Source: Patescibacteria group bacterium (GTDB taxonomy: Bacteria; Patescibacteriota; Microgenomatia; Levybacterales; UBA12049). From it: a stretch of 64,000 nucleotides of DNA. Positions 1,997 to 60,717 of this stretch are shown in pieces. The stretch is from contig JAMCZC010000002.1 in NCBI GenBank assembly GCA_023485865.1, forward strand, positions 1,000 to 64,999. The letters run 5' to 3'. The position numbers and the translations under genes are program-made. The first letter of the stretch is position 1, and each line of letters begins with the position of its first letter. Below the pieces are notes generated by a model that made no database searches, was not told where the DNA came from, and saw only the letters and a list, made by a program, of their open reading frames with translations.

Positions 1997-3382
1997 TTAC
2001 ACAGTAAATTTGAATCCGCGGCCTTTTACCGTTTGGATATGGTTTGGGGTATTGGGGTCGTTTTCTATTTTTTTTCTAAGCCTGAAAATAAGCTGGTCAA
2101 GGGCCTGGTTGGTAACTCCTGCAGTTGACTGCATATTTTCCCAAACTGCATTTATAATTTCTTCTCTTTCAATTATTTTTCCGGCATTTACGATAAAAAA
2201 TTTTAAGAGCTTAAATTCAGACGACGTAAGCTTATCCGAAATAACTAAATTCCCCTTTTTAACCTCATTGGAATTTTGGTCAAAAACAATCTTTTCATTT
2301 TCCGCCGAAAGCTTATTTTTTTCTAAAGCATAGTCTTTTAAAAGCGGAATCGTTAATTTGTTTTTGTCGATTAAACCAACGTTTTCAAGATAAGAAATGT
2401 CCTGATTGGCAAAATTTAAAAGCGTTAATAAGTTTTGTTCGAAAGGGTTTAGGCAGTTCCAAATGCCAAAAAGAGCGCTTCTTACGGGTTTTTGTTTAAG
2501 AAAAAACTCGCCCAGCTCCGAGCTAGACGCTAATGGTTGATTTTTGATTATTGATTTTTGATTATTGATTGTTAGAATTGCCTCCAAACAATGCCTGGTT
2601 AAATTTCCATGTCCTCCGGTTAAGGAAAGAACTTTCCCAAGCGTTTTCTTATCTATTTTTTTGCCTGTTACCTTTTCAAGATATGCAATTCTAAAATCAA
2701 GACCCGGTTTATCTAAAATAGGCAGGTACACAATTTTTCCTGCCATAAATTCGTAAAAATCTCCAAAAAATATAGGTTCAAAAATATCCTCCAGAGGTCT
2801 GGTTGCAGAAAAAACAACGGAAAAGCGGTATTTTGCCCTGTTTCTTAAAACTCTTAAGTTAGCGAAAAAATCAGCGGTTAAAGCGGGAACATATTCTTCG
2901 AACCTGTCTAAAAGGAAAACAATCGCAAGCTCTTTTTCTATGGCCAAAAAATCAATTGCCCTTTTTAGCCCCTGAAATAAAATCAACTCATCATTTAATT
3001 CGATGCTCTCTCTAAAAATTTTATTAACCGCGTCGTATTCATTTTCCATTTTTCTGCCTCTTAAAGAATCTAAAAGCCCTAGGAATATAAATTTAGTTGC
3101 GTCAAAAAGCGGTTTTTTTCTTATTTCCGAAAAATTTAAAAGCACAAAATGAAACCATTTTTGGTTTTCACCTAAATGTTTTAAGCGCACATTTCGGTTA
3201 TAAGCCAAGAGCCCTAAAAGGTTAGATCTTCCTATTCCGGGGACGCCAATTATTTGGCAGGAATTGCCCTCTTTAACAAAAGACAGAATTTTTTCAATCT
3301 CAGGAAATCTCGTATCTTCCGGATACAAAGATTCAAAATGAGAGGAATCGATTGTTAAATTGTTAAATTGTTTCATCTTCAT
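1997..3382 (-). CDS. Transcriptional regulator: N-terminal P-loop ATPase domain fused to C-terminal OmpR/PhoB-type winged-helix DNA-binding domain
   Basis: 461 aa. Walker-A-like GVPGIGRSNLLGLL near the N-terminus (Arg in place of Lys). The C-terminal ~100 aa has the OmpR trans_reg_C signature (FKLLKFFIVNAGKIIEREEIINAVWE...QALDQLIFRLRKKIE...IQTVKGRGFKFTV). Contains an in-frame 15-nt-period tandem repeat at 2536..2571. Confidence 0.55.
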   Translation of the reverse strand: MKMKQFNNLTIDSSHFESLYPEDTRFPEIEKILSFVKEGNSCQIIGVPGIGRSNLLGLLAYNRNVRLKHLGENQKWFHFVLLNFSEIRKKPLFDATKFIFLGLLDSLRGRKMENEYDAVNKIFRESIELNDELILFQGLKRAIDFLAIEKELAIVFLLDRFEEYVPALTADFFANLRVLRNRAKYRFSVVFSATRPLEDIFEPIFFGDFYEFMAGKIVYLPILDKPGLDFRIAYLEKVTGKKIDKKTLGKVLSLTGGHGNLTRHCLEAILTINNQKSIIKNQPLASSSELGEFFLKQKPVRSALFGIWNCLNPFEQNLLTLLNFANQDISYLENVGLIDKNKLTIPLLKDYALEKNKLSAENEKIVFDQNSNEVKKGNLVISDKLTSSEFKLLKFFIVNAGKIIEREEIINAVWENMQSTAGVTNQALDQLIFRLRKKIENDPNTPNHIQTVKGRGFKFTV

Positions 3383-3424: not shown

Positions 3425-3796
3425 TCAAATATTATTCCTTTTCCCTTTTAAAGTCAGGACGCTCGATCCGAATATTTTGGAAATTTCATCAAGTTCTGCC
3501 AAAATTGAATCTGCTTCCTCTTTCTCACCGTTACCTGTATCTCGCAATATCAAAACCCAAACCTTGCTTTCATTTGCCGACTTTAGAGAATGATGGAAAT
3601 AGTTCGTATAATCTTTCTTTGAACTTGCAGACTGGCCTTCTATGTAATTACCTAAAATACTTGTCCCGCTTCTTATTAATTGATCTCCGACAATTCTAGT
3701 TGTTTGGGACTTTTTACAATTTTCAACAAATTTAATAATCCTTAAAATAAGGCTATATAAACGTCTTTTAAATTCTCTTTCCCTATTATCTTTCAT
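3425..3796 (-). CDS. four-helix-bundle protein (TIGR02436-like), second copy
   Basis: 123 aa helical protein with the same family pattern (IVGDQLIRSGTSILGNYIEGQSASSKKDYTNYFHHSLKSANESKVWVLIL). It flanks the regulator on the other side. Confidence 0.5.
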   Translation of the reverse strand: MKDNREREFKRRLYSLILRIIKFVENCKKSQTTRIVGDQLIRSGTSILGNYIEGQSASSKKDYTNYFHHSLKSANESKVWVLILRDTGNGEKEEADSILAELDEISKIFGSSVLTLKGKRNNI

Positions 3797-3962: not shown

Positions 3963-6900
3963 ATGACAGAGCGAGGGCCAAGAGCAATTGATTTGACAAA
4001 CCAGGCTAATCCTCATAGACTGAATGTAAGAGGAGATATTTTTATGCCAGGAGAACCAGGTGGCGGAGAAACGCCGCCAATACATCATCCAGCAGCAGAA
4101 ACAAGCAAAAAGCCTAGCGAGCCAGCGGAGTCAAAACCAACCTCAAGATATTTACCTGTCACGTTTGAGAGGCAGCAAGAGGTAAGGGAAGCATGGATGA
4201 GAAGACGGGAAGAACAAGAAAGAGGCGGGGAAAGAATAACAAGGGAACAGCTCGAAACGGAAGAAAAACTTATAAGAATGGGAATTCCACCTATTTCAGG
4301 AGGTTCCGGTGATGAACCGGAAGATTCTCAAGGCCAACCTACGGAAACCGATGCGCAAGCTCCTGAAAGAAGAACATTTAAGCCATCTGCTGAATGGCAA
4401 GAAATTCCAAGAAGTGTGGCAATTCCTCCAGGGGCAACAATAAGAATGGATATGGAGTCAGGCAAAAGTTATGCCAAATGGGACACGCCTCCCGAAACAG
4501 AGATTGAATATGAATTTGGAGCAGAAAGTGCCGGAGATGGCGGAGGACAAGAGCCCCCAGTGCGAGGGGCGGGCCCTCCTGCCAGCCCCCCCGGCGGCGA
4601 TGGAGGAGGTAATGAACCGCCCGCTCCGCCAGTAACTCCACCAGGAGGAGAAGGCGGAAATGGAAATGGTGACGAAAATCCTCGGGAAGAACAAGAACCG
4701 GCAAACGAAGGAGCAGATGCGGCTCATGAGCCTGAATCTCCTACGTCGGCCGCAGATCCTATTAGCAAAGCATTGTCTAGGATTCCTGAAGACTTAACTA
4801 AGGATGAAAAAGATTTCATTAGCGAAAATTATGGTGAAGACGCAGAAGACTTAATAAAAAGAGCCACGGAACAAAGAAGGGCGCTAAAACTCTACGCAGA
4901 TCAATTTAGAGAAGAGCGATTTGATAGACTATTCGATCCGGAGCGCTCGTATTATAAATTGAGTGAAGCCATAAGAATGGGAGAGGTCTCCGCGGTAGAG
5001 GCTGAAGAGCTTCGAATGGCAATAGCAACAAGCGCTGTAGCGGAAAGATTACGAAGACAACCCCCTGAAGAAAGGGATGAGATAAGAGATCTACTAGAGA
5101 GAACAAAGGATGGTACGCCGGAAGCAAAACTAGAGAGAAGGAATGGTCTTAAGGGGTGGATTGAAAGAATTAATCCTGATTACATAACAGTTGATCCAAA
5201 TTTCATGCGAGCGGTTGCCGAAGACCCGGAAGCCGCGGAGATGTTTCTTGATAAGATAATTTCAAAACCCTTTGCCTCTCCTGAAGACCAATACAGCCTA
5301 AGCTTTTATGCGGCAATAAATTTATCGGGTTTCTTAACAGAAGTAAATGCCGTAAGTAGACAACGGCACACCGATTATGTGCGGAAAAAAGAAGCTTCGC
5401 TTAGGTTTCATGAAATGAACAGAACCATAATCTCCGAATCGGGCAATCTTGAAGCGTTTTTGAGTATCTCGCGATCGGTAACTCCTCAACACATACAAAC
5501 AGCAACAGAGATAACAGGGGCAGCGCACATGCGACATCTGATTGAAAGCGCCTTTAAAAGGCTATATGCGGCAAAAAATCAAGTAGAGGAACATGACTTT
5601 CCGGAGCAAATTATTGAACGGTCAATAAGGCAATTCTATAGAGATGCAGGGTATGAGCTTGTCGTTGAGCCCGGCGAAAATGAGGGGAAATGGGTATATA
5701 AAGGAAGAGACGTTATCAAAAGCGAATTCCGCGATGCCGATAATAACAAGAGACCCTTAGAAGTTTGGGAAATTGAAAGAGCAGTTGCATTTGGAAGAAA
5801 TATGTCTGCGGCCTTTTACCGTCTATCGGAGCTTGTTTCATGGAGTCATGTTTCCCCGGAAGCGCCGGAATGGCTTAAGTCTATGCCCTCGGAAACCGTG
5901 GTAAGAAATCTCGGAGGCCTTAAAATGCTTCAAGAAAGATTTAAATACGGCCAAACCAAAGGGGGTCCGCAGTTTGTTGCTCTTCTTTACGACAAACTAC
6001 AAAAAGGTTTTAAAGATAAATCCAAAGATTATAACGAAAAGCACGAGAAAGACGGAGAAAGAATGATTACTAAAATTGGCAAACTAAGCATTTTAACAGA
6101 CATACTTCCCACCGGTTTTTATAAGGCCTCGGGATTTGACAAGGGCTGGAGAACTATTGCCGCATACCTTGATACAAAAGTAGCAAGTATAACTATACCT
6201 GATTCAAACATTTTTCCTAATCTAACCAAAAAAGATTTTCCCGAACTCGATCCGAAAAACTTCCCTGACTATAAACCGGAGGATGTGCCAGGCATGGTGA
6301 GAAAAGCAATAGAAGAACTTATGGGTAAAATAAAAGGGAATGAAACAACCTTATATAGATTTCTTCTAAGCCAAGAGCTTGCTGCCCAGCTCGCTACCGC
6401 TGTAAGCGACAAGGAAGCTACGGCTGCCGGGGTATTAACTCCAAAGGAAGACAGACCGTTTAACGCTAAAATACAAAAAATACTTGTTGAACAAGCATTG
6501 ATGCCGCTTTTAGGATATAAATATAACCCGGAGGGAGCTAAGAAAAGAGCTAAAGAGAAAAACCCGCAAGAAGCTAATTGGATAGGTCCGTGGGAATATA
6601 AAGGAGATGCAGAAGCGGGAGATAGGATGGTAGACCAAATAAATCTATCTTTAGGGATTTTGATAGGAAATGGCTCGTCTTCGGAAAGAGTCAAAACTGC
6701 TCTCTGGAAGAAAACTGCGTCTTTCCTGCCGCTTGAAGTTGGGCAACTCTTATCAGAAGCAGGCGTCAGAGAACTTATCGATGATTATGATGTACACAAA
6801 GCCCCCAACGAAAAAATTCAAGGGGAGGGCGAGTTTCTTTTTAGCGACGAATTTGAGAGAAAATTATTCAGGGCGGAACAATCAAGAATTAGAGCGCAAG

Positions 6901-7679
6901 TTCAAGAGCAAGAGAGGGCGGTGGGCGCAGAGGCTAAAGCTGAAAGAATAGCTGGGAGAATTGAGCTCGACAGTTTTCTTGCAACAGCCGGTCTTGATGC
7001 GGATGAAATTGCTTTTGTAAGAAAACTTCAGAAGTTTGGTAAAGATAGAGCCGAACAACTTGCGATGGTTTCTTTCCCGCACATTCCCTTTCTGGAAGAC
7101 GTTCCTTTTGATAAGGCAGATTACATTAGTCTTGGCGCAGAAGTTTTTCCAAGACGAATCGGAAGAGATTTTAGCGGTTATGCAAAAGCAACAGAAGAAG
7201 GCGGAAATATTATCGGCCACCTTGAATTACCATACGAAAACTTTCTTGAAATAGTAGGAAAAGTAGAGGATAGCCTTTCGGGTCCGGAGGGTTCGATAGC
7301 TGCCCAAGATTTGGGCTCAACTTTTCTAAAAACATATATTGATCTTGCCAAACAATGGGGGATTACGCGTTTGCCGCTGGTTAAAGGGGTACGTGAGTTT
7401 AGGGGATTACCAACTTCCGGATTTCAGAAGATCTTCGGACGAGAAGCCCCCTCTTGGGGACCAACGGAGATAAACCATGAAGTTAATGTGGCGCTTGGTA
7501 AAGGACTGATAAGAAGGGAAATAATTCCTGGCGAAAAAGAGTCTCAGACGGATGAAATTTTGCATCACGCACGCGCTGCGTGGCTAAATGTTTTGAATGA
7601 GCAGGGGCCAAAAGGACTGATGTTTCTAATAATGACTGCTCTTTTTAAATTCTTCAAAGAGGTCACGAAAAGTAAGTAA
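3963..7679 (+). CDS. Large acidic hypothetical protein (1238 aa) with Pro/Gly/Glu-rich disordered N-terminal region
   Basis: Single long ORF with no competing frames. No signal peptide or TM segment is visible. Residues ~30-260 are low-complexity (PGGEGGNGNGDE, PPASPPGGDGGG) and locally GC-rich; the remainder looks globular. No domain recognised. The start could instead be the internal MPGEPGG. Confidence 0.6.
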   Translation: MTERGPRAIDLTNQANPHRLNVRGDIFMPGEPGGGETPPIHHPAAETSKKPSEPAESKPTSRYLPVTFERQQEVREAWMRRREEQERGGERITREQLETEEKLIRMGIPPISGGSGDEPEDSQGQPTETDAQAPERRTFKPSAEWQEIPRSVAIPPGATIRMDMESGKSYAKWDTPPETEIEYEFGAESAGDGGGQEPPVRGAGPPASPPGGDGGGNEPPAPPVTPPGGEGGNGNGDENPREEQEPANEGADAAHEPESPTSAADPISKALSRIPEDLTKDEKDFISENYGEDAEDLIKRATEQRRALKLYADQFREERFDRLFDPERSYYKLSEAIRMGEVSAVEAEELRMAIATSAVAERLRRQPPEERDEIRDLLERTKDGTPEAKLERRNGLKGWIERINPDYITVDPNFMRAVAEDPEAAEMFLDKIISKPFASPEDQYSLSFYAAINLSGFLTEVNAVSRQRHTDYVRKKEASLRFHEMNRTIISESGNLEAFLSISRSVTPQHIQTATEITGAAHMRHLIESAFKRLYAAKNQVEEHDFPEQIIERSIRQFYRDAGYELVVEPGENEGKWVYKGRDVIKSEFRDADNNKRPLEVWEIERAVAFGRNMSAAFYRLSELVSWSHVSPEAPEWLKSMPSETVVRNLGGLKMLQERFKYGQTKGGPQFVALLYDKLQKGFKDKSKDYNEKHEKDGERMITKIGKLSILTDILPTGFYKASGFDKGWRTIAAYLDTKVASITIPDSNIFPNLTKKDFPELDPKNFPDYKPEDVPGMVRKAIEELMGKIKGNETTLYRFLLSQELAAQLATAVSDKEATAAGVLTPKEDRPFNAKIQKILVEQALMPLLGYKYNPEGAKKRAKEKNPQEANWIGPWEYKGDAEAGDRMVDQINLSLGILIGNGSSSERVKTALWKKTASFLPLEVGQLLSEAGVRELIDDYDVHKAPNEKIQGEGEFLFSDEFERKLFRAEQSRIRAQVQEQERAVGAEAKAERIAGRIELDSFLATAGLDADEIAFVRKLQKFGKDRAEQLAMVSFPHIPFLEDVPFDKADYISLGAEVFPRRIGRDFSGYAKATEEGGNIIGHLELPYENFLEIVGKVEDSLSGPEGSIAAQDLGSTFLKTYIDLAKQWGITRLPLVKGVREFRGLPTSGFQKIFGREAPSWGPTEINHEVNVALGKGLIRREIIPGEKESQTDEILHHARAAWLNVLNEQGPKGLMFLIMTALFKFFKEVTKSK

Positions 7680-27079: not shown

Positions 27080-28111
27080 ATGTTTATGGATATTAATGCT
27101 CTTCTTTCCTTGATCTCCATATCTAGCTTAGGATTTAACTGGATTGATATTTTAATACTAATTGTTGTTATTTTTTATGGCTTCGAAGGTTACGCCCTCG
27201 GTTTTTACGTAGCTTTAGTAGATTTAATAAGTTTTATTGTTTCTTTTGCTTTCGGTCTTTTGTTTTACGCAGTTATAGGCGGGATTCTGGTTAAAGTTTT
27301 CTCGATGCCTTCCGGTTTTGCCAATGCGATAGGATTTTTTATGGTGGCATTTATTACAGAAATTATTATTAGCTACATTTTAAAACATCTTGTTTTAAGT
27401 GCGACATTTATTGCCGAGTTTGAAAATCAACCAGAGAATATTAAAATACTCAATAATTTCCTTGGCATTCTTCCGGCTGTTTTTTCCGGGCTTTTGCTTC
27501 TTTCTTTTATACTGACAATGATTATTGCTCTACCTGTTTCAACTTTTCTTAAACATTCCGTATCCTCTTCTAGAGTAGGAAACGTTTTGGTTACCAATAC
27601 CCAGGGGCTTGCAAAAGACTTAAACAGCGTTTTTGGCGGTGCGGTTAACGAAACTTTGGCTTTCCTAACGGTTGAACCAAAGAGCAACGAAGTGGTTAAT
27701 CTTAATTTTAAAACCAGTAGCTTTAGCGTCGACCAAGTTTCCGAAGAAAAAATGTTCACTATGGTAAATCGGGAAAGAACTTCCCGGGGAGTGTCCGCGC
27801 TTTTGTTGTGGGACAAGTTAACGGATGTTGGTAGGGCTCATTGTGAAGATATGCTAAAAAGAGGTTATTTTTCTCATTACACACCCGAAGGAATTTCTCC
27901 TTTTGACAGAATGGCTAAGGCTGATATTGAATTTACTTTTGCCGGGGAAAATCTTGCTCTGGCACCAAACACGGAATTGGCAATGCAGGGGTTTATGCAA
28001 AGCCCCGGGCACAGGGCAAATATTTTATCAGCAGATTTCCACAGGATCGGAATAGCGGCAATAGACGCCGGAGTTTACGGACAAATGTATTGCCAGGAAT
28101 TCTCTGACTAA
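27080..28111 (+). CDS. CvpA-family membrane domain fused to C-terminal CAP/SCP (YkwD-like) domain
   Basis: N-terminal ~170 aa with 4 TM helices of CvpA type. The C-terminal domain contains GYFSHYTPEG...SPGHRANIL...RIGIA, a CAP/SCP signature. Confidence 0.55.
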   Translation: MFMDINALLSLISISSLGFNWIDILILIVVIFYGFEGYALGFYVALVDLISFIVSFAFGLLFYAVIGGILVKVFSMPSGFANAIGFFMVAFITEIIISYILKHLVLSATFIAEFENQPENIKILNNFLGILPAVFSGLLLLSFILTMIIALPVSTFLKHSVSSSRVGNVLVTNTQGLAKDLNSVFGGAVNETLAFLTVEPKSNEVVNLNFKTSSFSVDQVSEEKMFTMVNRERTSRGVSALLLWDKLTDVGRAHCEDMLKRGYFSHYTPEGISPFDRMAKADIEFTFAGENLALAPNTELAMQGFMQSPGHRANILSADFHRIGIAAIDAGVYGQMYCQEFSD

Positions 28112-28114
28112 AAT

Positions 28115-28140
28115 AATGATAAATGATTAAGGATTAATGA
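28115..28140 (+). repeat. 26-nt conserved motif AATGATAAATGATTAAGGATTAATGA (copy 1 of 3; contains SD-ATG of pgk)
   Basis: Identical 26-mer at 60730..60755; close variant (24/26) at 41272..41297. Confidence 0.6.
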
Positions 28141-29177
28141 TTAGATTAAAAAAAATACAAGAAGCCGATGTTAAGAATAAAACGGTTCTTTTAAGAGCGG
28201 ATTTGGATATTCCTCTCGCGGGGGGGAAGATTGCAGACGATTTTCGTTTAATTACTTCTCTTGAAACTATCAATTATTTTTTAAAGCAAACAAAGACAAT
28301 AGTTATTATCGGTCACCTCGGACGTCCGGAAGAAGGAGATAAAAGTTTAAGTTTGAAAGTTGTGGCGAAGTGGTACGCCAAAAATTTCAAATTTCAAATT
28401 TCAAATTTCAAATTAAAGGATTTTACTGGATGGAAAATTGGAGAAAAGTTAATTCTTTTGGAAAATCTTAGATTCTTTCAGGGCGAAGAAAAAAATGATC
28501 AGGGTTTTTCTAAACAATTAGCCTCACTTGCCGATATTTATGTTAACGACGCTTTTGCTTCTTCGCATAGAGCGCATGCTTCAATAGTCAGTGTCACTAA
28601 ATATTTGCCTTCCTTTGCAGGATTAAGGCTTGAAAAAGAAGTCGAAGAACTTTCAAAAATTCTAAATGGCCCCAAACGGCCGCTGGTGGTGATAATAGGC
28701 GGGGCAAAAATCGAGACAAAACTTCCCCTGGTTGAAAAAATGCACCACTTTGCCGACTATGTTTTGGTGGGCGGGGAAATTGCGGAAAATGATAAAGTTC
28801 TTCTTAAAGTTCAACATGAAAAAATTACAGGCAGAAAATCAATTCTTCTGGTGGCCGATTCGAACGAAGATTTAAACGATATTACTTCCAAATCGGCTGA
28901 AAACTTTGTTCAGATAATTCAAAATGCAAAAACAATTGTTTGGAATGGTCCGATGGGTGTTACGGAAGAAAAAGAAAATCAAAACGGAACAAATATTTTG
29001 GCAGAAGGCATAGTCCAAACATCCGCGGATACAATAGTTGGGGGAGGAGACACACTGGCATTTTTAAAAGAAAAAAATCTGCTTGATAAATTTTCTTTTG
29101 TTTCAACAGGAGGCGGCGCAATGCTGGAATTTTTGGCAGATGAAAATCTCCCGGGCCTGGAAGTGTTGGATATTTAA
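28137..29177 (+). CDS. pgk: Phosphoglycerate kinase
   Basis: VLLRADLDIP..., GHLGRPEEG, and a C-terminal GGGDT-type motif (VGGGDTLAF). Carries an in-frame 7-nt-period repeat (28382..28413) encoding KNFKFQISNFKL. The 3' end (29115..29177) is duplicated downstream at 29767..29832. Confidence 0.9.
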   Translation: MIRLKKIQEADVKNKTVLLRADLDIPLAGGKIADDFRLITSLETINYFLKQTKTIVIIGHLGRPEEGDKSLSLKVVAKWYAKNFKFQISNFKLKDFTGWKIGEKLILLENLRFFQGEEKNDQGFSKQLASLADIYVNDAFASSHRAHASIVSVTKYLPSFAGLRLEKEVEELSKILNGPKRPLVVIIGGAKIETKLPLVEKMHHFADYVLVGGEIAENDKVLLKVQHEKITGRKSILLVADSNEDLNDITSKSAENFVQIIQNAKTIVWNGPMGVTEEKENQNGTNILAEGIVQTSADTIVGGGDTLAFLKEKNLLDKFSFVSTGGGAMLEFLADENLPGLEVLDI

Positions 29178-29197
29178 CTTTAATTTTTCGGGGGGTT

Positions 29198-29226
29198 GAC
29201 AATTTTGTAACTATTGTATATACTTT
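29198..29226 (+). promoter_or_regulatory. Consensus sigma70 promoter (TTGACA-17-TATACT) with flanking inverted repeat, for the relB-yafQ cassette
   Basis: TTGACAattttgtaactattgtaTATACT. An inverted repeat TTGTAAC...GTTACA brackets the -10 and is a candidate autoregulatory operator. Only ~8 nt from the -10 to the ATG (near-leaderless). Confidence 0.5.
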
Positions 29227-29234
29227 GGTTACAT

Positions 29235-29510
29235 ATGAGAACTGTAATTTATATTAAAACAGACAACGAAATAAAAAAGAACGCCCAGAAACTAGCCCTA
29301 GAGCTAGGGCTTAATCTAAGTGACGTAATTAATGCATCTCTTAGAAATTTTATAAGAACTCGAGAGGTCTATTTTTCTTCTATTCCTAAAATGACTTTAG
29401 AGCTTGAGAGAATTCTCGGGCCGATAGATGAAGACATAAAAAGAGGTAGGAATCTTTCCCGACAACTTTCTGATTCTTCTGAAGTAAATGATTACCTCAA
29501 TTCCTTATGA
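29235..29510 (+). CDS. RelB/DinJ-family antitoxin
   Basis: MRTVIYIKTDNEIKKNAQKLALELGLNLSDVINASLRNFI is the RelB/DinJ RHH pattern. 4-nt ATGA overlap with the downstream toxin. Confidence 0.7.
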   Translation: MRTVIYIKTDNEIKKNAQKLALELGLNLSDVINASLRNFIRTREVYFSSIPKMTLELERILGPIDEDIKRGRNLSRQLSDSSEVNDYLNSL

Positions 29511-29764
29511 TAGTTCGCGTTCATAAAAACTTTGAAAAACAATATAAGAAATTAAAAAAAACAGAGAAAGATAAATTTAAAGAGAGAATTAATATTTTTA
29601 TTACAGATGAATTCAATCCAATACTTAATAATCACCCGCTTAGAGGTAAATATTTAGGTTATAGAAGTATTAATGTGACAGGAGATCTTCGGGCAATATA
29701 TAAAAGAGAAGAAAATCTAACAATTTTTGTTGCAGTTAATTCGCACAGCAACCTATATCGATAA
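29507..29764 (+). CDS. RelE/YafQ-family mRNA-interferase toxin
   Basis: 85 aa, basic. Matches the YafQ/RelE pattern (…FKERINIFITDEF…LRGKYLGYRSINVTGDLRAIY…IFVAVNSHSNLY). Confidence 0.7.
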   Translation: MIVRVHKNFEKQYKKLKKTEKDKFKERINIFITDEFNPILNNHPLRGKYLGYRSINVTGDLRAIYKREENLTIFVAVNSHSNLYR

Positions 29765-29766
29765 TT

Positions 29767-29832
29767 GGCGCAATGCTTGAATTTTTAGCCGGCGAAAATC
29801 TCCCGGGCCTGGAAGTCTTGGAACAAAGCTAA
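29767..29832 (+). repeat. Diverged duplicate of the pgk 3' end (~85% identical to 29115..29177), right boundary of the TA cassette
   Basis: GGCGCAATGCTTGAATTTTTAGCCGGCGAAAATCTCCCGGGCCTGGAAGTCTTGGAACAAAGCTAA compared with GGCGCAATGCTGGAATTTTTGGCAGATGAAAATCTCCCGGGCCTGGAAGTGTTGGATATTTAA. The reverse-strand six-frame ORFs at both sites share the same peptide (…LPGPGDF…). Confidence 0.8.
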
Positions 29833-29878
29833 ATAAAAGCACACAATAAGATAAATAAAATAGATCTATTTTTGATAT

Positions 29879-29907
29879 CTTGACAAATAGATTTATTTTT
29901 GTTATTA
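29879..29907 (+). promoter_or_regulatory. sigma70-type promoter (TTGACA-17-TATTAT), near-leaderless, for the DGQHR gene
   Basis: TTGACAaatagatttatttttgtTATTATaattttgttATG. Confidence 0.45.
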
Positions 29908-29917
29908 TAATTTTGTT

Positions 29918-31054
29918 ATGCAAAAAGATAGTATAAGTTTCAAAATTCCAGCAATACGCCTTTTCCAAAGAGAGACAGAGGGGAAAGCAATTTACGTAGG
30001 AGTTATTAAGGCTTCAGATTTATCTTCTCATCCGCAAGAAAGATTTAGGATTGCCTATTTTGACAGAGAAAACAAAAATGCAGGTTATCAAAGAAGACTT
30101 CAGGATAATAAAGTCGAGAAACTTAAGGAATTTATACTTAAAGAGACTAAGACCCCATTGTTCCCAACTGCAATATTAGTTAATTCAAGAGAAATGTTAG
30201 ATTTTAAAGAAATCTCTAAGGGGGTAGGAACACTTCATGTAAATGAGCCACTTTTTGTGATTGATGGACAGCATCGTGTTACAGCGTGGAGAGCAATTGT
30301 GGATGAAACCGATCTTGCGGATAAATGGAAGGATTATGAATTTCCAATTGTACTAATGAGCGGTTTTAAAATCCTAGAAGAGATGGAGCAATTTTATGTG
30401 ATAAATTCTAGGCAAACGAAAATCAAAACAGATCTGGTTCACAGCTTGCTACTTGAGTTTGAGAAAAAAGATGAGACTAGAAATTTAGTTAAAGAAAAAG
30501 ACAAATGGATACCTAGGGCAGTAGTAATAACAGAAAATTTAAACAAATCTGGGGCATGGAAAGATAGAATTGGTTACGATTCAGATAGCGATTTAATGCG
30601 AAAGACAAGAGTTATTCAGGCCACGTCAGTTGTCGGAGCTTTAAAGCATTTATTTGTAGGAAATAAAAAGTTATTTGACATAGAAAATCCTAAAATTGAC
30701 GAGTGGATAAAATTTCTAAATGATTATTGGGAAATTATTGCAGATATTTATCCAAATGCAGTTAACAATGCAAACGATTATTCGTTAATGAAGACGGTTG
30801 GAATAAATGTAATGCATATTTTACTAGCCGATAAGTCTTACGATTTAGGCTTAGGCATAGAACAAAAAGAGGAACTCTTAAAAAAAATGAGAGAAACTTT
30901 AGTTCGTGCTGCGATTAGCGATATCCCTGAGGATTTTTGGAGATCTGATGTTTCTAAACAAACAAGAGAGAGAGGAAGATATGCCGGAGCTTTTTCATCC
31001 TCTGCGGGACATAAGAGACTAGCCACAGCAATATTCATAAACAGATTTGATTAA
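29918..31054 (+). CDS. DGQHR-domain protein (DndB-like, ParB/sulfiredoxin-fold nuclease superfamily)
   Basis: 378 aa containing the eponymous motif FVIDGQHRVTAW, with the surrounding pattern of DndB/DGQHR proteins. No dndCDE or other partner genes nearby. Confidence 0.6.
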   Translation: MQKDSISFKIPAIRLFQRETEGKAIYVGVIKASDLSSHPQERFRIAYFDRENKNAGYQRRLQDNKVEKLKEFILKETKTPLFPTAILVNSREMLDFKEISKGVGTLHVNEPLFVIDGQHRVTAWRAIVDETDLADKWKDYEFPIVLMSGFKILEEMEQFYVINSRQTKIKTDLVHSLLLEFEKKDETRNLVKEKDKWIPRAVVITENLNKSGAWKDRIGYDSDSDLMRKTRVIQATSVVGALKHLFVGNKKLFDIENPKIDEWIKFLNDYWEIIADIYPNAVNNANDYSLMKTVGINVMHILLADKSYDLGLGIEQKEELLKKMRETLVRAAISDIPEDFWRSDVSKQTRERGRYAGAFSSSAGHKRLATAIFINRFD

Positions 31055-31099
31055 TCTCCTCTTGCTCATTTTTTAATTCCTCTGTTATACTAAATTACT

Positions 31100-32158
31100 A
31101 TGATTAAAGTCGCGATTAATGGATACGGAAGAATTGGCAGGTTGGCACATCGGGTTGTTTTGGAAAGATATACTCAAGACATTGATATAGTTGCTATAAA
31201 TGCGGGCTCCTCAACGGATATTAAGGGTTGGATGTATTTGTTAAAATACGATACTACCTACGGGCCGATACTTGATAGGCCTATTTCTTATCAGGAAGCC
31301 GAGGGGAATTCGGTAACGAGCAAACTTTTGGGTTATCTTCTTGTCGGAAACGCAAAAATCCCGGTTTACTCCGAAAAAGACCCGACACTTTTACCTTGGA
31401 AAGATTTAAACGTTGACGTTGTAATAGAATCAACCGGTCATTTTACAACGGAAGAAAAATTAAAAACTCATCTTCAGGCGGGTGCAAAAGCGGCAGTTTT
31501 ATCCGCTCCGGTAAAAGAAGGGGACATTAATACTTACGTTTTATCGGTTAACGCCCAAAACTACAACGGAGAAAATTTAATCAGTAATGCCTCTTGTACT
31601 ACCAATTGCATTGCTCCAGTTGCAAAAATTATGGTAAATCATTTTGGGGTTGAAAAGGCAATGATGACAACTGTCCATGGATATACATCTGATCAAAAAC
31701 TTCAAGACGGAGGACACAAAGATTATAGACGCGCCAGGGCGGCCGCTTTGAATATTGTCCCAACTTCAACCGGCGCGACAATTGCGGCGGCAAAAGCGGT
31801 GCCGGAACTTGCGGGACTTTTTTCTGGTCTTGCGATTAGGGTCCCTGTTCCTGCGGGTTCGCTTTCGGATTTTACCTTCATTTTAAAAAAAGAAACTACA
31901 AAAGAAGAAGTAAATAGTATTTTTAAACAGGAAGCGCAAAGCCAGAATTTTGAAGGAATACTGATGGTAACGGAAGATCCTTTGGTTTCTAGTGATATAA
32001 TCGGAAATCCATACTCGGCTATTGTAGATTTATCTTTAACCCAAGTTTTGGGAAATTTAGTAAAGGTAATTGCCTGGTACGATAATGAATACGGATATGC
32101 TAATAGGCTGGTTGAGGAAACCATAATGATTGGCAGTAAGCTTACAAGTACAATATGA
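31100..32158 (+). CDS. gap: Glyceraldehyde-3-phosphate dehydrogenase
   Basis: MIKVAINGYGRIGR, SNASCTTNCIAP active site, WYDNEYGY. Confidence 0.9.
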   Translation: MIKVAINGYGRIGRLAHRVVLERYTQDIDIVAINAGSSTDIKGWMYLLKYDTTYGPILDRPISYQEAEGNSVTSKLLGYLLVGNAKIPVYSEKDPTLLPWKDLNVDVVIESTGHFTTEEKLKTHLQAGAKAAVLSAPVKEGDINTYVLSVNAQNYNGENLISNASCTTNCIAPVAKIMVNHFGVEKAMMTTVHGYTSDQKLQDGGHKDYRRARAAALNIVPTSTGATIAAAKAVPELAGLFSGLAIRVPVPAGSLSDFTFILKKETTKEEVNSIFKQEAQSQNFEGILMVTEDPLVSSDIIGNPYSAIVDLSLTQVLGNLVKVIAWYDNEYGYANRLVEETIMIGSKLTSTI

Positions 32159-32742
32159 AAACTCCCGTTGAACTTCCCGGCATTAGAAATATTACTATCT
32201 CCGGCAGAATCGGAGCAGGAGCAACTACCTTGGCTAAAAAACTTTCCGAAAAACTAAACTGGCCTTTGCTTGAGGGAGGGGAAATATTTGCAAAAATCCA
32301 CAAAGAGTTAGATATCAGCCAAGTAGATGTTTTACAAAGGCCGGATAGTTTCGATCTTAAATTTGAAGCACAAATAAAAAAAACACTTGCCAAAGAAAAG
32401 CATCAAATCATCCAAAGCCATTTGGCAGGATTTGACGCCCAGGGAATTGAGGGCGTTTTTAAAATTTTGATTATTTGCCGCGATGAAGAAGGCGATGACA
32501 AGGCTGATATTAGGATAGACAGGCTTATGAATAGAGATGGTATTTCTCTTGAGCAGGCAAAACATGAAATTCTAGAAAGAGAAAAAGCTAATATAGAAAA
32601 ATTCAGAAAACTTTATGCTAAAAACGACCCGAATTGGGTTTATTGGAATAAAAAATATTACGATTTTATAGTAAATACATATTCGCATAATCAGGAAGAA
32701 ACTCTAGATCTGGTCTTACGGGGGATAGGATATGGAAAATAG
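32155..32742 (+). CDS. Cytidylate-kinase-like P-loop NMP kinase
   Basis: ITISGRIGAGATTLAKKL P-loop at the N-terminus; size and layout as (d)CMP kinase family. 4-nt overlap with gap. Confidence 0.55.
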   Translation: MKTPVELPGIRNITISGRIGAGATTLAKKLSEKLNWPLLEGGEIFAKIHKELDISQVDVLQRPDSFDLKFEAQIKKTLAKEKHQIIQSHLAGFDAQGIEGVFKILIICRDEEGDDKADIRIDRLMNRDGISLEQAKHEILEREKANIEKFRKLYAKNDPNWVYWNKKYYDFIVNTYSHNQEETLDLVLRGIGYGK

Positions 32743-33497: not shown

Positions 33498-33549
33498 TTG
33501 ACAGGGTAGATCTAGTGTCATACTATCCTTCTTGGCACTACAAGTAGTG
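33498..33549 (+). promoter_or_regulatory. nrdR-nrdJ promoter (TTGACA-17-TACTAT) with NrdR-box
   Basis: CACTACAAGTAGTG (33536..33549) fits the palindromic NrdR-box consensus acaCwAtATaTwGtgt. A weaker half-palindrome TAGTGTCATACTAT overlaps the -10. Confidence 0.5.
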
Positions 33550-33605
33550 ATTTAAAGTTAAAATTCAAAAGTCAAAGGTCAAAAGTTAATAATTTTGAAT
33601 TTTTT

Positions 33606-41358: not shown

Positions 41359-41431
41359 GGAGCTGTAGTTCATCGGTCAGAACGCGACTCTTATAAAGTC
41401 GATGCAGATGGTTCAACTCCATCCAGCTCCA
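41359..41431 (+). tRNA. tRNA with anticodon UAU (tRNA-Ile decoding AUA)
   Basis: Acceptor GGAGCTG/CAGCTCC. D-stem GTTC/GAAC. Anticodon stem-loop CGACT-CTTATAA-AGTCG with U33 and anticodon T-A-T. T-arm GATGG-TTCAACT-CCATC. Discriminator A. No CCA. Confidence 0.7.
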
Positions 41432-41523
41432 CAAGCAGATGTTCTTGCCTGCCCTTCCGAAGTTTTAACGAAGGAGGGGTTCGAACCCAAGCAGACGCAC
41501 CGCGTCAAACGCTGCTTCGCCTA

Positions 41524-42390
41524 TTAGAGTTCGGTAAGCGCGGCGCCTTCTTTGCTTTTTCCAACCTCTCCGACGTATTGAAGATATCTTTCGGTTGTTG
41601 AAAGTCTTTTGTGTCCTAAAACTTTGGACAAAACAATTAATGAAACGCCGTGTTTTAAGTGGTGGGCGACAAAAGTGTGCCTCAAATCGTTAACTTTCGC
41701 TTCTCTTATTTCTGCTAAGCGGAAATATCTTTCAACAGCCGTTCTAATATTTCTTATCAAAAACGGCTTGCCGGATTTTGTTATGAACAAATGGTCCTCT
41801 TTAACGCTTGGCCGAATATTCATGTACCTAGTTAAAGCTTCCCTGGCGCTTTTATTAAGGGGAACAATTCTGTCTTCATGCTTTTCAAAAGGAGCTATGT
41901 GCAGGCTGTCTTTGGTAACATCCGAAAGTCTTAAGTTTGAAAGCTCGCCGATTCTAATCCCCGTTTGTAAAAGAAGCTCTATAATTGCAAACATTCTCGG
42001 GTCGTTTTTTGCGGCGTCTCTTAATGCCCTATATTCTGTTGGGGTTAAGATTCGCGGGGGCGCCAGCTGATATTTGGGGTGGGATACCAAAAGGGAGGGG
42101 TCATCCGTAACGTATTCGTTTACTTTTAAAAATCGATAAAAGGTTCTGGTTGAATTTATTTTTCTTGAAATTGATTTAGGTGTATAGTTATCCTTGCTCA
42201 TTTTGGCTAGAAAAGCTTCGATGTCTTCCTTAGATACCTCGTGGACCTCGTTTCTTTGCAGTTCTTCCAGGAACGAAAGTAATTGGTCAATATCTTTTCC
42301 GTACGCAATTACGGTGGAGTTTGATTTATTATTTTCCTTTAAATATTTTTTAAATTCTTCGTGGGCATCGCGAAGCTTAATCGGCTTCAT
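41524..42390 (-). CDS. Tyrosine site-specific recombinase (XerC/XerD-like)
   Basis: 288 aa. N-terminal SAM-like core-binding domain. C-terminal catalytic residues within LRHTFVAHHLKHGVSLIVLSKVLGHKRLSTTERYLQY (H-x-x-R ... Y). Its size suits Xer better than a phage integrase. Lies ~90 nt from the tRNA 3' end. Confidence 0.7.
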   Translation of the reverse strand: MKPIKLRDAHEEFKKYLKENNKSNSTVIAYGKDIDQLLSFLEELQRNEVHEVSKEDIEAFLAKMSKDNYTPKSISRKINSTRTFYRFLKVNEYVTDDPSLLVSHPKYQLAPPRILTPTEYRALRDAAKNDPRMFAIIELLLQTGIRIGELSNLRLSDVTKDSLHIAPFEKHEDRIVPLNKSAREALTRYMNIRPSVKEDHLFITKSGKPFLIRNIRTAVERYFRLAEIREAKVNDLRHTFVAHHLKHGVSLIVLSKVLGHKRLSTTERYLQYVGEVGKSKEGAALTEL

Positions 42391-43849: not shown

Positions 43850-43891
43850 AGGGGGGAATTATAGCGCTGGAGTTACTATAAGTCAAATTAG

Positions 43892-43964
43892 TACCAGGGG
43901 CGAGGATCGAACTCGCGACCACCGGGATATGAATCCGGCGCTACTACCACTGAGCTACCCTGGC
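43892..43964 (-). tRNA. tRNA-Met (anticodon CAT; elongator-type, could alternatively be lysidine-modified tRNA-Ile2)
   Basis: Reverse complement: GCCAGGG-TA-GCTC-AGTGGTAG-TAGC-G-CCGGA-TTCATAT-CCCGG-TGGTC-GCGAG-TTCGATC-CTCGC-CCCTGGT-A. The 1:72 pair is G:U, not the C-A mismatch of initiators. Confidence 0.75.
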
Positions 43965-45846: not shown

Positions 45847-47082
45847 ATGAGGCCGACTTTCAAAATAATCAAAAAAGACAAGAAATCAAAAGCCAGAGCT
45901 GGTATTATCAAAACCCCCCATGGTGAGATCGAAACGCCGATTTTTATTCCGGTCGGGACCCAAGGGACGGTAAAAGCAGTTTCACCGCGTGACCTAAAAG
46001 AAATGGGGGCGCAAATAGTTTTGGCAAATACCTATCATTTACACTTAAGGCCGGGAGAAGACCTTATTCAAAAGTTCGGAGGTTTGGCAAAGTTCATGGG
46101 GTGGGAAGACGGTCCCCACTTCGCCAAGACTTCGAGGGGCAGGCCGACGATGACAGACTCCGGAGGTTTTCAGGTTTTTTCTTTAGGGGTAGGAAAGATG
46201 GGCGGAGGGGTGAAATTCCTCAAAGAGGAAATATCAAATTTAAAATATCAAATTTCAAATATAGAAGAGGCAAGGCCAAGACTTAATAAAATTACTGAAG
46301 AAGGGGTGACTTTTCAGTCGCATATTGACGGGTCAAGCCATAAACTGACTCCGGAAAGCTCAATCAAAATTCAGGAAAAGCTCGGAGCCGATTTAATTGT
46401 TGCTTTTGACGATTTGGAGTCGCCCAAATACTCTTTTGAAGAAACAAAAAAATCACTCGAACTTACAAACAGATGGGAGTTGCGTTCGAAAAAAGCTCAC
46501 AAAAGGAAAGATCAATTGCTGTACGGCGTAACTCACGGAGGGCCGTTTAGAGACTTAAGAGAACTTTCCGCCAAATTTGTTGACGAGAACTTTGACGCTA
46601 TTGGTATGGGCGGAGCACACTTGTCAAAGAAAAATTTATATGAGGTAGTTAGTTGGACAACGGATATTGTTTCGGATGAAAAGCCGAGGCATCTTTTGGG
46701 AATTGGAGAAGTTGATGATATTTTTGAAATTATTCAAAGGGGCGTTGATACTTTTGACTGCGTAATTCCAACAAGAATTGGAAGAACTGGATTTTTCTTT
46801 GTTTTCCCGCCCAAAGGCACAGTCAAAAACCGCTTTAGAACAGACATAGACAAGCCAAATTTTAGAACCGACCCAAAACCTTTGGATTTAAATTGCAAAT
46901 GTTATGCTTGTCAGAATTTCAGTAGAGCTTACATCCATCACTTATTTCGAAGCAAGGAACTATTGTCGTATCATCTTTTAAGCCTTCACAACGTCCGTTT
47001 TCTCATTAACCTTACAAAACAAATTAGGAAAGCGATTTTAGAAGATAAGTTTCAAAACCTAAAAAAAGACTGGATTGGTTGA
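45847..47082 (+). CDS. tgt: Queuine tRNA-ribosyltransferase (tRNA-guanine transglycosylase)
   Basis: TPIFIPVGTQGTVK, DSGGFQVFSLG. Zn site CKCYACQNFSRAYIHHLF. Carries an in-frame repeat-derived insertion (46229..46263, KYQISNIEE). The 3' ~90 nt is duplicated downstream at 48709..48796. Confidence 0.85.
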   Translation: MRPTFKIIKKDKKSKARAGIIKTPHGEIETPIFIPVGTQGTVKAVSPRDLKEMGAQIVLANTYHLHLRPGEDLIQKFGGLAKFMGWEDGPHFAKTSRGRPTMTDSGGFQVFSLGVGKMGGGVKFLKEEISNLKYQISNIEEARPRLNKITEEGVTFQSHIDGSSHKLTPESSIKIQEKLGADLIVAFDDLESPKYSFEETKKSLELTNRWELRSKKAHKRKDQLLYGVTHGGPFRDLRELSAKFVDENFDAIGMGGAHLSKKNLYEVVSWTTDIVSDEKPRHLLGIGEVDDIFEIIQRGVDTFDCVIPTRIGRTGFFFVFPPKGTVKNRFRTDIDKPNFRTDPKPLDLNCKCYACQNFSRAYIHHLFRSKELLSYHLLSLHNVRFLINLTKQIRKAILEDKFQNLKKDWIG

Positions 47083-59640: not shown

Positions 59641-60717
59641 ATGTATCAGCCCAAATTTACCATTACCAATAAAATCCTCAAAAATATCGGCAGTATTGAA
59701 GCCTCAAAAGAAATAATCGATAAAGCTCCGCTTTTACCTTACTACGAAAAAGAATTCAGGCAAGACGCAATTGTCAGAAGTGTTCACTTTGGAACGCACA
59801 TTGAGGGAAACGAGCTTAATCTTTCGCAGGCTGAAAAAGTTTTGGAGGGAGTAGAGATTGCCGCCAGAGAAAGAGATATCCAGGAAGTTATTAATTACCG
59901 GAAAGTAATGGAGTATATAGGAGAATCTAGGATTCAGAATTCCCCAGCCTCGACAAGCGAAGCGGGGCGGGCAGAATTTAAAATAGACGAAGAATTAATA
60001 AAACATCTTCACAAGCTTACTGTTAATAAAATTCTGGAGCCTGAAAAGTGCGGAATTTTTAGAAAAACACAGGTTGTGGTTAAAAATAGCCTTACGGGTG
60101 AAGTTTCGTTTAAACCGCCGATGGCGGTTGCGGTGCCTTTTCAAATTAAAGATTTGCTTTTATTTATTAACACTCCGTCCGAAATCCACCCGGTTTTAAA
60201 AGGGGGGATAGTCCATTACGAATTAGTCAGAATCCATCCCTTTTTGGATGGCAACGGAAGGGTTGCCAGGGTACTTTCAACCTTAATCTTGTTTCAGGAA
60301 GGCTATGATATTAGAAAATTTTTCTCTTTGGAAGAATACTTTGACTCCGACGCCGGAGCATATTATGATGCTTTGCAAAGCGTTTCCAAAAGTGAAGGGG
60401 ATTTGACGGGTTGGCTTGAGTATTTTTCCCTGGGGCTTTCTATAGAGCTTTCCAAAATAAAAGAGAAGGTGGAAAATATTTCAATTGACGCAAAATTAAA
60501 GGAAAAATTGGGGGGAAAACCGCTGCTTTTATCAAATAGACAGTTAAGAATAATTGAATATATTCAGAAAACGGGGTTTTTGCAAAATCAAGCTTTCGGA
60601 AGTCTTTTTCCAATGGTTTCCGAAGATACGATTTTAAACGAATTAAAATCTCTGGTTGCTTCGGGAATTGTAAAAAAACACGGAGTTACCAAAGGCGCGA
60701 AGTACATTATGGCCTAA
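59641..60717 (+). CDS. Fic/DOC family protein (AMPylation-type motif) with C-terminal winged-helix domain
   Basis: Canonical Fic motif HPFLDGNGRVARVL, with the N-terminal helical extension and C-terminal wHTH found in long Fic proteins. Confidence 0.8.
   Translation: MYQPKFTITNKILKNIGSIEASKEIIDKAPLLPYYEKEFRQDAIVRSVHFGTHIEGNELNLSQAEKVLEGVEIAARERDIQEVINYRKVMEYIGESRIQNSPASTSEAGRAEFKIDEELIKHLHKLTVNKILEPEKCGIFRKTQVVVKNSLTGEVSFKPPMAVAVPFQIKDLLLFINTPSEIHPVLKGGIVHYELVRIHPFLDGNGRVARVLSTLILFQEGYDIRKFFSLEEYFDSDAGAYYDALQSVSKSEGDLTGWLEYFSLGLSIELSKIKEKVENISIDAKLKEKLGGKPLLLSNRQLRIIEYIQKTGFLQNQAFGSLFPMVSEDTILNELKSLVASGIVKKHGVTKGAKYIMA

Follow-up and report, generated by a model that had tools for sequence, protein, structure and literature searches.

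An insertion between pgk and gap

The window, by which we mean the whole 64-kb stretch of DNA analyzed here (64 kb of a 66-kb contig), contains 59 ORFs. Between its glycolytic genes pgk and gap, and on the same strand, lies an ORF for a 378-aa protein that NCBI lists, for exactly this protein, as [quoted passage not shown]. The features of the locus are as follows.

28137-29177: pgk (PF00162, 317 bits)
29178-29766, plus strand: RelBE insertion, separate from the DGQHR unit and absent from all homologous loci
29196-29224, plus strand: the RelBE cassette's own promoter (consensus scan)
29214/29235-29510, plus strand: RelB/DinJ antitoxin (HMM)
29507-29764, plus strand: RelE/YafQ toxin (HMM)
29767-29830, plus strand: remnant of the original pgk 3′ end, which reads GAMLEFLAGENLPGLEVLEQS-stop and marks the old pgk stop codon (direct repeat)
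29849-31055, plus strand: self-contained DGQHR cassette of operator-like sites, promoter and ORF (blastn to L029-L031)
29857-29872, no strand: operator-like site O1, which lies directly before the -35 box and is a perfect palindrome of 16 nt, AAAATAGATCTATTTT
29880-29908, plus strand: promoter, TTGACA, 17 nt, (TG)TATTAT (consensus scan, 11/12 matches, extended -10 TG)
29885-29898, no strand: operator-like site O2 in the -35/-10 spacer; its sequence, AAATAGATTTATTT, matches O1 at 13/14 positions
29918-31054, plus strand: gene for the 378-aa DGQHR-domain protein (HMM, AF2 model, dN/dS)
29918-30427, plus strand: N-terminal ParB/sulfiredoxin-fold NTPase-like domain, residues ~1-170 (motifs GYQR, DGQHRvtA, FyviN)
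30263-30277, plus strand: codons of the DGQHR pentapeptide (sequence reading; invariant in alignment A2)
30428-31051, plus strand: C-terminal all-helical domain, residues ~171-378 (alignment A2, AF2 model)
31055-31099, plus strand: native pgk-gap spacer with the gap promoter (...GTTATACTAAATTACT ATG), aligning with the spacers of L107 and L108
31100-32158, same strand as the DGQHR gene and downstream of it: gap

A copy of the gene whose product is 90% identical is found at L029-L031. In blastn comparisons with these loci, 84% identity extends across exactly 29849-31055, and there is no homology outside these limits. The copy sits between unrelated genes, with a 117-aa unknown protein encoded upstream and a 267-aa unknown protein and a HEPN protein encoded downstream. 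The DGQHR gene moves as a single-gene cassette that comprises the operator-like sites, the promoter and the ORF. In L029 (1595-3007), the downstream 267-aa protein is a weak DUF5677 match and is followed by the HEPN-domain protein; these two genes may form another conflict module.

Directly after the DGQHR stop codon, the native pgk-gap spacer restarts. The relative L107, whose PGK is 77% identical, has the gene order of the window throughout (PBP, PBP, CvpA/CAP, pgk, gap, CMP-kinase-like, DUF5667, nrdR, RNR), and in it pgk is followed by 89 nt and then by gap. Because this site is empty, the DGQHR gene represents an insertion into a conserved pgk-gap pair, which bears out the preliminary description of the interval as a landing pad for accessory genes. 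In a second relative, L108, this position is taken by different cargo, namely a TrpR-like gene.

The adjacent toxin-antitoxin pair has a history of its own. Direct repeats of 56 nt from the pgk 3′ end flank it (29115-29170 and 29767-29822; 89% identity), and the downstream one stays in frame to a stop codon at 29828-29830. Homology of the DGQHR cassette begins at 29849, downstream of both RelBE and the pgk remnant, and no RelBE neighbor was found beside the 90%-identical copy or at ~20 other family loci. RelBE and the DGQHR gene are separate insertions with separate promoters and scars. The preliminary description had raised the possibility of a minimal system formed by the two; since RelBE is a separate insertion, absent from all homologous loci, that proposal is unsupported.

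In L108, copies of the pgk 3′ end (5984-6044 and 6690-6750) lie around the TrpR-like cargo, and the remnants in the window and in L108 start at the same position (CGCAATGCT). The likeness of these remnants suggests site-specific integration into the 3′ end of pgk, the last ~60 nt of which look like an att-type integration site. No integrase gene is adjacent to the duplicated pgk 3′ ends in the window or in L108. Within this lineage, small cargo cassettes appear to enter the 3′ end of pgk repeatedly.

The DGQHR protein, its family and its neighbors

The motif FVIDGQHRV occupies residues 113-121. Assignment of the protein to the DGQHR/DndB ParB-fold family, as made in the preliminary description, was confirmed by scores of 100.3 bits against the TIGR03187 DGQHR domain (curated cut-off 58.85) and 59.6 bits against Pfam PF14072, DndB (cut-off 29.1). 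The three signature motifs of DGQHR/DUF262 proteins are GYQR, DGQHR and FxxxN (PMC4619093), and their counterparts here, GYQR 56-59, DGQHR 116-120 and F159..N163, are invariant in alignment A2 and nearly so in alignment A4. DGQHRvtA (116-123) fits the ParB GxxRxxA phosphate-binding motif (G117-R120-A123), with FyviN at 159-163, and on the strength of the GxxRxxA-compatible motif and N163 the protein is predicted to bind NTPs.

An AlphaFold2 model built from 33 family sequences (pLDDT 90, pTM 0.83) agrees with the ParB-type fold that had been proposed: its N-terminal domain resembles solved ParB/Srx structures. No significant match to solved structures was obtained with the C-terminal half (~171-378), and structure matches in BFVD have the N-terminal domain only in common (TM 0.3-0.4). 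The C-terminal domain carries family-specific invariant residues (W214, W271, K292, G295, H300, W341 and A356..S360..G364-H365, "SSSAGH"), and the last ~70 residues of the protein lie outside the coverage of the TIGR03187, DpdB and DndB models. No HNH/DUF1524 (EHxxP), PD-(D/E)XK or HEPN motif or domain was detectable in the protein, a result that gives no direct support to the stand-alone nuclease raised as a possibility in the preliminary description. No DNA-binding HTH was positively identified in the AF2 model. For DndB, the C-terminal domain has been proposed to be of the HEPN type (PMC3632139); the same assignment was rejected here, as Pfam gave no match, the Rx4-6H motif is missing, and the broader family does not conserve H365. 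Comparison with the 90%-identical homologue gave dN/dS = 0.06 at a dS of ~0.9, values from which we conclude that the gene is real and under strong purifying selection.

Models for the characterized relatives gave low scores. The protein reached 21.1 bits with the DndB equivalog TIGR03233 (cut-off 328), 64.9 bits with the DpdB equivalog NF041060 (cut-off 300; 64.2 bits with the PADLOC DpdB model), 31.8 bits with DGQHR_dnd_1 (cut-off 450), and 17 bits with GmrSD_N (DUF262; cut-off 33.2). Because both equivalog models fail widely, the protein is neither DndB nor DpdB; it is a solitary member of a distinct, uncharacterized DGQHR (DndB/DpdB-like) subfamily.

A PADLOC search of the 59 window ORFs revealed no dnd, ssp or dpdA genes, and no dndCDE, dpdA or ssp genes were found in ~20 family loci, some of them with 10-17 kb of flanking sequence. 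The lack of dnd and ssp partners remarked on in the preliminary description is a property of these homologues as well. PADLOC matches to mad3, mad8 and IetA in the window were discarded as cross-matches of RecF, FtsK and FtsH. The one remaining match, 29 kb from the DGQHR gene, is a SoFic-like Fic-domain protein (59641-60717) that fits the PADLOC single-gene defense model SoFic with an E value of 6.5e-48 and scores 62.6 bits with the NCBIfam SoFic equivalog, far under its cut-off of 550. The one TGT gene of the window, at 45847-47082, codes for the canonical tRNA enzyme (TIGR00430, 425.9 bits against a cut-off of 306.75), and its candidacy as DpdA was dismissed at 23.7 bits against a cut-off of 200.

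Three further features of the window are recorded here. A 1238-aa ORF (3963-7679) has no NCBIfam or PADLOC match; upstream of it are a 461-aa protein with an OmpR/PhoB-type winged-helix C-terminus (1997-3382, minus strand) and two small flanking ORFs (1573-1959 and 3425-3796). A gene for a XerC/XerD-like tyrosine recombinase (41524-42390; 172 bits, under the equivalog cut-offs) lies ~90 nt from, and on the opposite strand to, a tRNA-Ile gene with the unusual anticodon TAT (41359-41432). A tRNA-Met(CAT) gene is located at 43891-43964.

Some 58 full-length homologues of 374-407 aa were found, with identities of 35-90%. In an exhaustive profile search, ~14 representative clusters exceeded 300 bits; the broader full-length family to which they belong numbered 339 at E<1e-30 and reached 2707 at E<1e-3. 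Record titles place most family members in Patescibacteria/CPR (Saccharibacteria, Dojkabacteria) and other uncultured lineages. The family is not one of phages or plasmids, since their sequence collections yielded nothing closer than distant relatives (≤25% identity); the distant DGQHR genes of plasmids occur in other, two-gene contexts. In the broader family there are occasional fusions to UvrD-type helicase or HTH modules, and weak ones to GIY-YIG. Neighbors that could be assigned include the following.

L035: type I hsdRMS
L036-41: MmeI-like IIG enzyme and PLD-helicase
L004/5/6/52/53: C5 methyltransferase and a 279-aa unknown protein
L054/55/57: EcoRI-like methyltransferase and DUF262-HNH
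L045/48/49: small HNH nucleases
L045, L006, L052/53: Schlafen-type (SLFN-like) helicase and MazG-like protein
L048/49: HATPase_c_3 protein (MORC-like HATPase)
L046/49: Cas4-like nucleases

The preliminary description had linked the family to defense and had looked to a survey of neighborhoods for recurring partners. The first idea holds in part: many loci do lie among R-M and other defense genes, from which a defense role may be proposed through guilt by association, but about a third of the contexts, this window included, are housekeeping regions. The second fared worse, as blastp clustering of the neighbors in 27 loci yielded no cluster, and thus no partner, common to the family. An apparent neighbor cluster spanning 6 loci was rejected as a mere shared HNH motif between unrelated nucleases.

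One clade stands apart in its surroundings. In this Dojkabacteria/Caldisericia clade, the DGQHR gene is always beside a C5 DNA methyltransferase and a conserved 279-283-aa protein with no Pfam domain (L004 3584-4423, L005 1784-2635, L006 5246-6085, L052 880-1719, L053 1639-2478), which may be a restriction enzyme. The promoter motif of this clade differs as well, being TTTTAGATGTTGACAT with a GGATTT..AAATCC inverted repeat.

Promoter and palindromic sites

The DGQHR gene has its own promoter, as the preliminary description had stated, and it is sigma-70-like. TTGACA (29880-29885) and TATTAT (29903-29908) form the best consensus match in the region. Just 9 nt separate the -10 box from the ATG, and there is no Shine-Dalgarno sequence; given this distance, the transcript is near-leaderless. 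The -35 region, ATCTTGACA, is kept among family members with 42-90% protein identity. Strong TTGACA- or TATAcT-type promoters a few nt before the start codon were also observed for the toxin-antitoxin pair (29196-29224) and gap (~31060-31092), and with three promoters placed in this way, near-leaderless transcription seems to be the rule in this stretch. No Rfam elements were found in 28000-32500.

What the preliminary description missed is a conserved palindromic element in this promoter. O1 and O2 are the only sites with ≤1 mismatch in the 64-kb window, and both fall within the DGQHR promoter. O2 is conserved in L029 and L035, and the arrangement of palindromes is preserved in L003, L035 and L045 despite protein identities of only 44-48%. 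Between this gene and its 90%-identical homologue, the first 50 nt upstream of the gene are 88% identical, compared with a 53% difference at synonymous sites.

The element recurs throughout the family. Of 20 distinct family promoters, 16 have the AGATCT core of the TAGATCTA-type palindrome no more than 120 nt upstream of the ATG. The background for a stretch of 120 nt is 3.3% in these loci, and control windows rich in AT gave 4.1%; the binomial P of ~1e-20 overstates independence, since the promoters are related by descent. In most cases the site reads wTAGATCTAw and lies near or over the -35 box or in the spacer, with positions and flanks that vary and with occasional tandem duplicates. The four promoters from which AGATCT is absent belong to the L004/L006/L051/L053 clade. 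Intragenic AGATCT is mildly enriched (0.65 vs 0.28 per kb) and was considered as a source of extra parS-like sites; this was rejected, as the occurrences stem from K(T/V)DL and WRS codons and are not conserved in the closest homologue.

A cis element that migrates with a gene across unrelated hosts and contexts is most simply explained as a site for the gene's own product. With two palindromic sites overlapping the DGQHR promoter and the motif kept in most family promoters, the conserved TAGATCTA-type palindromes point to autoregulation of the DndB type and suggest that it would take the form of autorepression. Alternatively, a host factor, or GATC methylation, could act at the palindrome instead of the DGQHR protein.

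A second TAGATCTA in the window (33507-33514) is located in the nrdR promoter spacer (33499-33550), with a CACTACAAGTAGTG palindrome 33 bp beyond it. The sequence is identical in L107, which has no insert, and this copy is for that reason probably unrelated to the DGQHR operator; the two nrdR-spacer palindromes are probably tandem NrdR boxes.

Proposed mode of action and comparison with known systems

From the biology of DndB, DpdB and ParB we infer that the protein binds the palindrome, binds and perhaps hydrolyzes NTP, and has a defense-type role. In the model that we favor, and to which we assign about an even chance, a one-gene cassette was inserted immediately downstream of the pgk stop codon, at a hotspot for insertions between pgk and gap. 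Its product, an NTP-binding and probably dimeric ParB-fold protein, would bind DNA and recognize the TAGATCTA-type palindromes situated beside and across the -35 and -10 elements of its gene, thereby repressing the strong promoter there in the way that DndB represses that of dnd. The payload function would be exercised without a dedicated partner and would probably be conflict-related, for example DNA sensing or occlusion in defense islands.

Other readings place the function elsewhere. The protein might be a stand-alone effector, acting as a ParB/Srx NTPase and/or non-specific DNA nickase or through NTP depletion, that provides single-gene defense, exclusion or abortive infection; tight autorepression would then hold a potentially toxic protein at low levels. 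ParB/Srx proteins with intrinsic ATPase and DNase activity, Osa and RK2 ParB, are documented (Maindola 2014 and Johnson 1999, as cited in PMC12839542), DpdB is a DNA-stimulated ATPase dimer with robust ATPase activity even without DNA (PMC10164549), and the frequent proximity to R-M and other defense genes, together with the weak GIY-YIG and the UvrD fusions of the broader family, which suggest DNA targeting, fits such a role. We nevertheless consider it unlikely: neither a recognizable nuclease domain nor an EHxxP/HNH motif occurs in the protein, it is not accompanied by an immunity partner, PADLOC sees only the weak DpdB-like match, and the near-absence of the family from phage and plasmid collections gives no hint that it serves for exclusion on mobile elements. 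Less probable again is that the protein regulates a Dnd, Dpd or similar DNA-modification system with genes elsewhere in the genome, works for it as an accessory ATPase, or is the evolutionary leftover of one. Its best specific HMM matches are indeed to DpdB and DGQHR_dnd_1, DndB is dispensable and sometimes found apart from its own system, and only 64 kb of the genome is in view, so that dnd or dpd genes may lie elsewhere in it. But the scores are far under the equivalog cut-offs, the ~20 family loci contain no dndCDE, dpdA or ssp, the sole Tgt of the window is the tRNA enzyme, and a decaying leftover is contradicted by strong purifying selection and by horizontal movement as one gene.

The two readings suggested by position alone have little to recommend them. 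Only 153 nt separate the toxin stop codon from the DGQHR ATG, and both insertions are in the same spacer; a functional unit with RelBE is still very improbable in view of the pgk 3′-end duplication that brackets the toxin-antitoxin pair by itself, the start of DGQHR homology past the remnant, the separate promoters, and family loci, the 90%-identical copy among them, that all lack RelBE. A housekeeping regulator of the glycolytic genes is just as hard to credit. The gene does lie between pgk and gap on the same strand, with no terminator predicted before gap, but it is missing from the syntenic L107 and replaced by different cargo in L108, its homologues occur in unrelated contexts, and gap retains its own promoter in the native spacer.

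A further possibility is a minimal one-gene "ParB-parS-like" module, in which an NTP-gated clamp would load at its own TAGATCTA, spread or slide, and silence or guard neighboring DNA (for instance defense-island genes) or sense incoming DNA. We regard this as a long shot; if true, it would constitute a new class of partner-less, self-loading defense/regulatory element, widespread in CPR.

The protein family and its annotation are already known, and orphan "DGQHR domain-containing proteins" are common. In the searchable literature we found no account of this subfamily as an autonomous one-gene cassette, of its conserved palindromic operator, or of DGQHR insertion at a recurrent pgk 3′-end hotspot. 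DGQHR-domain proteins have been annotated by the thousands and studied only as parts of Dnd and Dpd. The present analysis groups proteins of ~380 aa into a coherent subfamily that travels as one autonomous gene, keeps a palindromic operator-like site across >50% protein divergence, and tends to lodge among restriction and defense genes of CPR bacteria, which have few known defense systems. It offers a testable prediction, sequence-specific and NTP-modulated autorepression at TAGATCTA, and with it an entry point to the role of solitary DndB-like proteins.

Among known systems, the DUF262/GmrSD-type proteins (GmrSD, BrxU, SspE, DndI) differ from the DGQHR protein in having a DUF1524/HNH nuclease, which it lacks, and in an unlike C-terminal domain. 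ParB/KorB-type NTP-gated clamps load at a palindromic site; the DGQHR gene has no ParA partner, and clamp behavior of its product is hypothetical. DpdB, the ATPase of Dpd 7-deazaguanine DNA modification, is the best specific HMM match, over residues 9-307; it is of similar size, likewise has an NTPase domain of ParB type ahead of a helical one, and like the DGQHR protein is without the EHxxP nuclease motif. It has DGQQR where the protein here has DGQHR, and the window contains neither DpdA, a TGT paralogue, nor DpdC-K. With DndB (DptB), the protein has in common the DGQHR motif, a PF14072 score above threshold and membership in the ParB/Srx superfamily; DndB-like proteins bind ATP and GTP (PMC12704722), and the DndB model does not cover the "SSSAGH" C-terminal region. 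DndB regulates the dndBCDE phosphorothioation operon, whereas the DGQHR gene is monocistronic and mobile, with no dndCDE or dndA nearby at this locus or at any homologous one. In its own promoter, DndB binds two palindromes, as demonstrated by footprinting, and represses transcription (PMC4507180); the operator is TACGN10CGTA in that case and TAGATCTA in the DGQHR cassette, where two candidate sites, recognized from sequence, likewise overlap the gene's own promoter.
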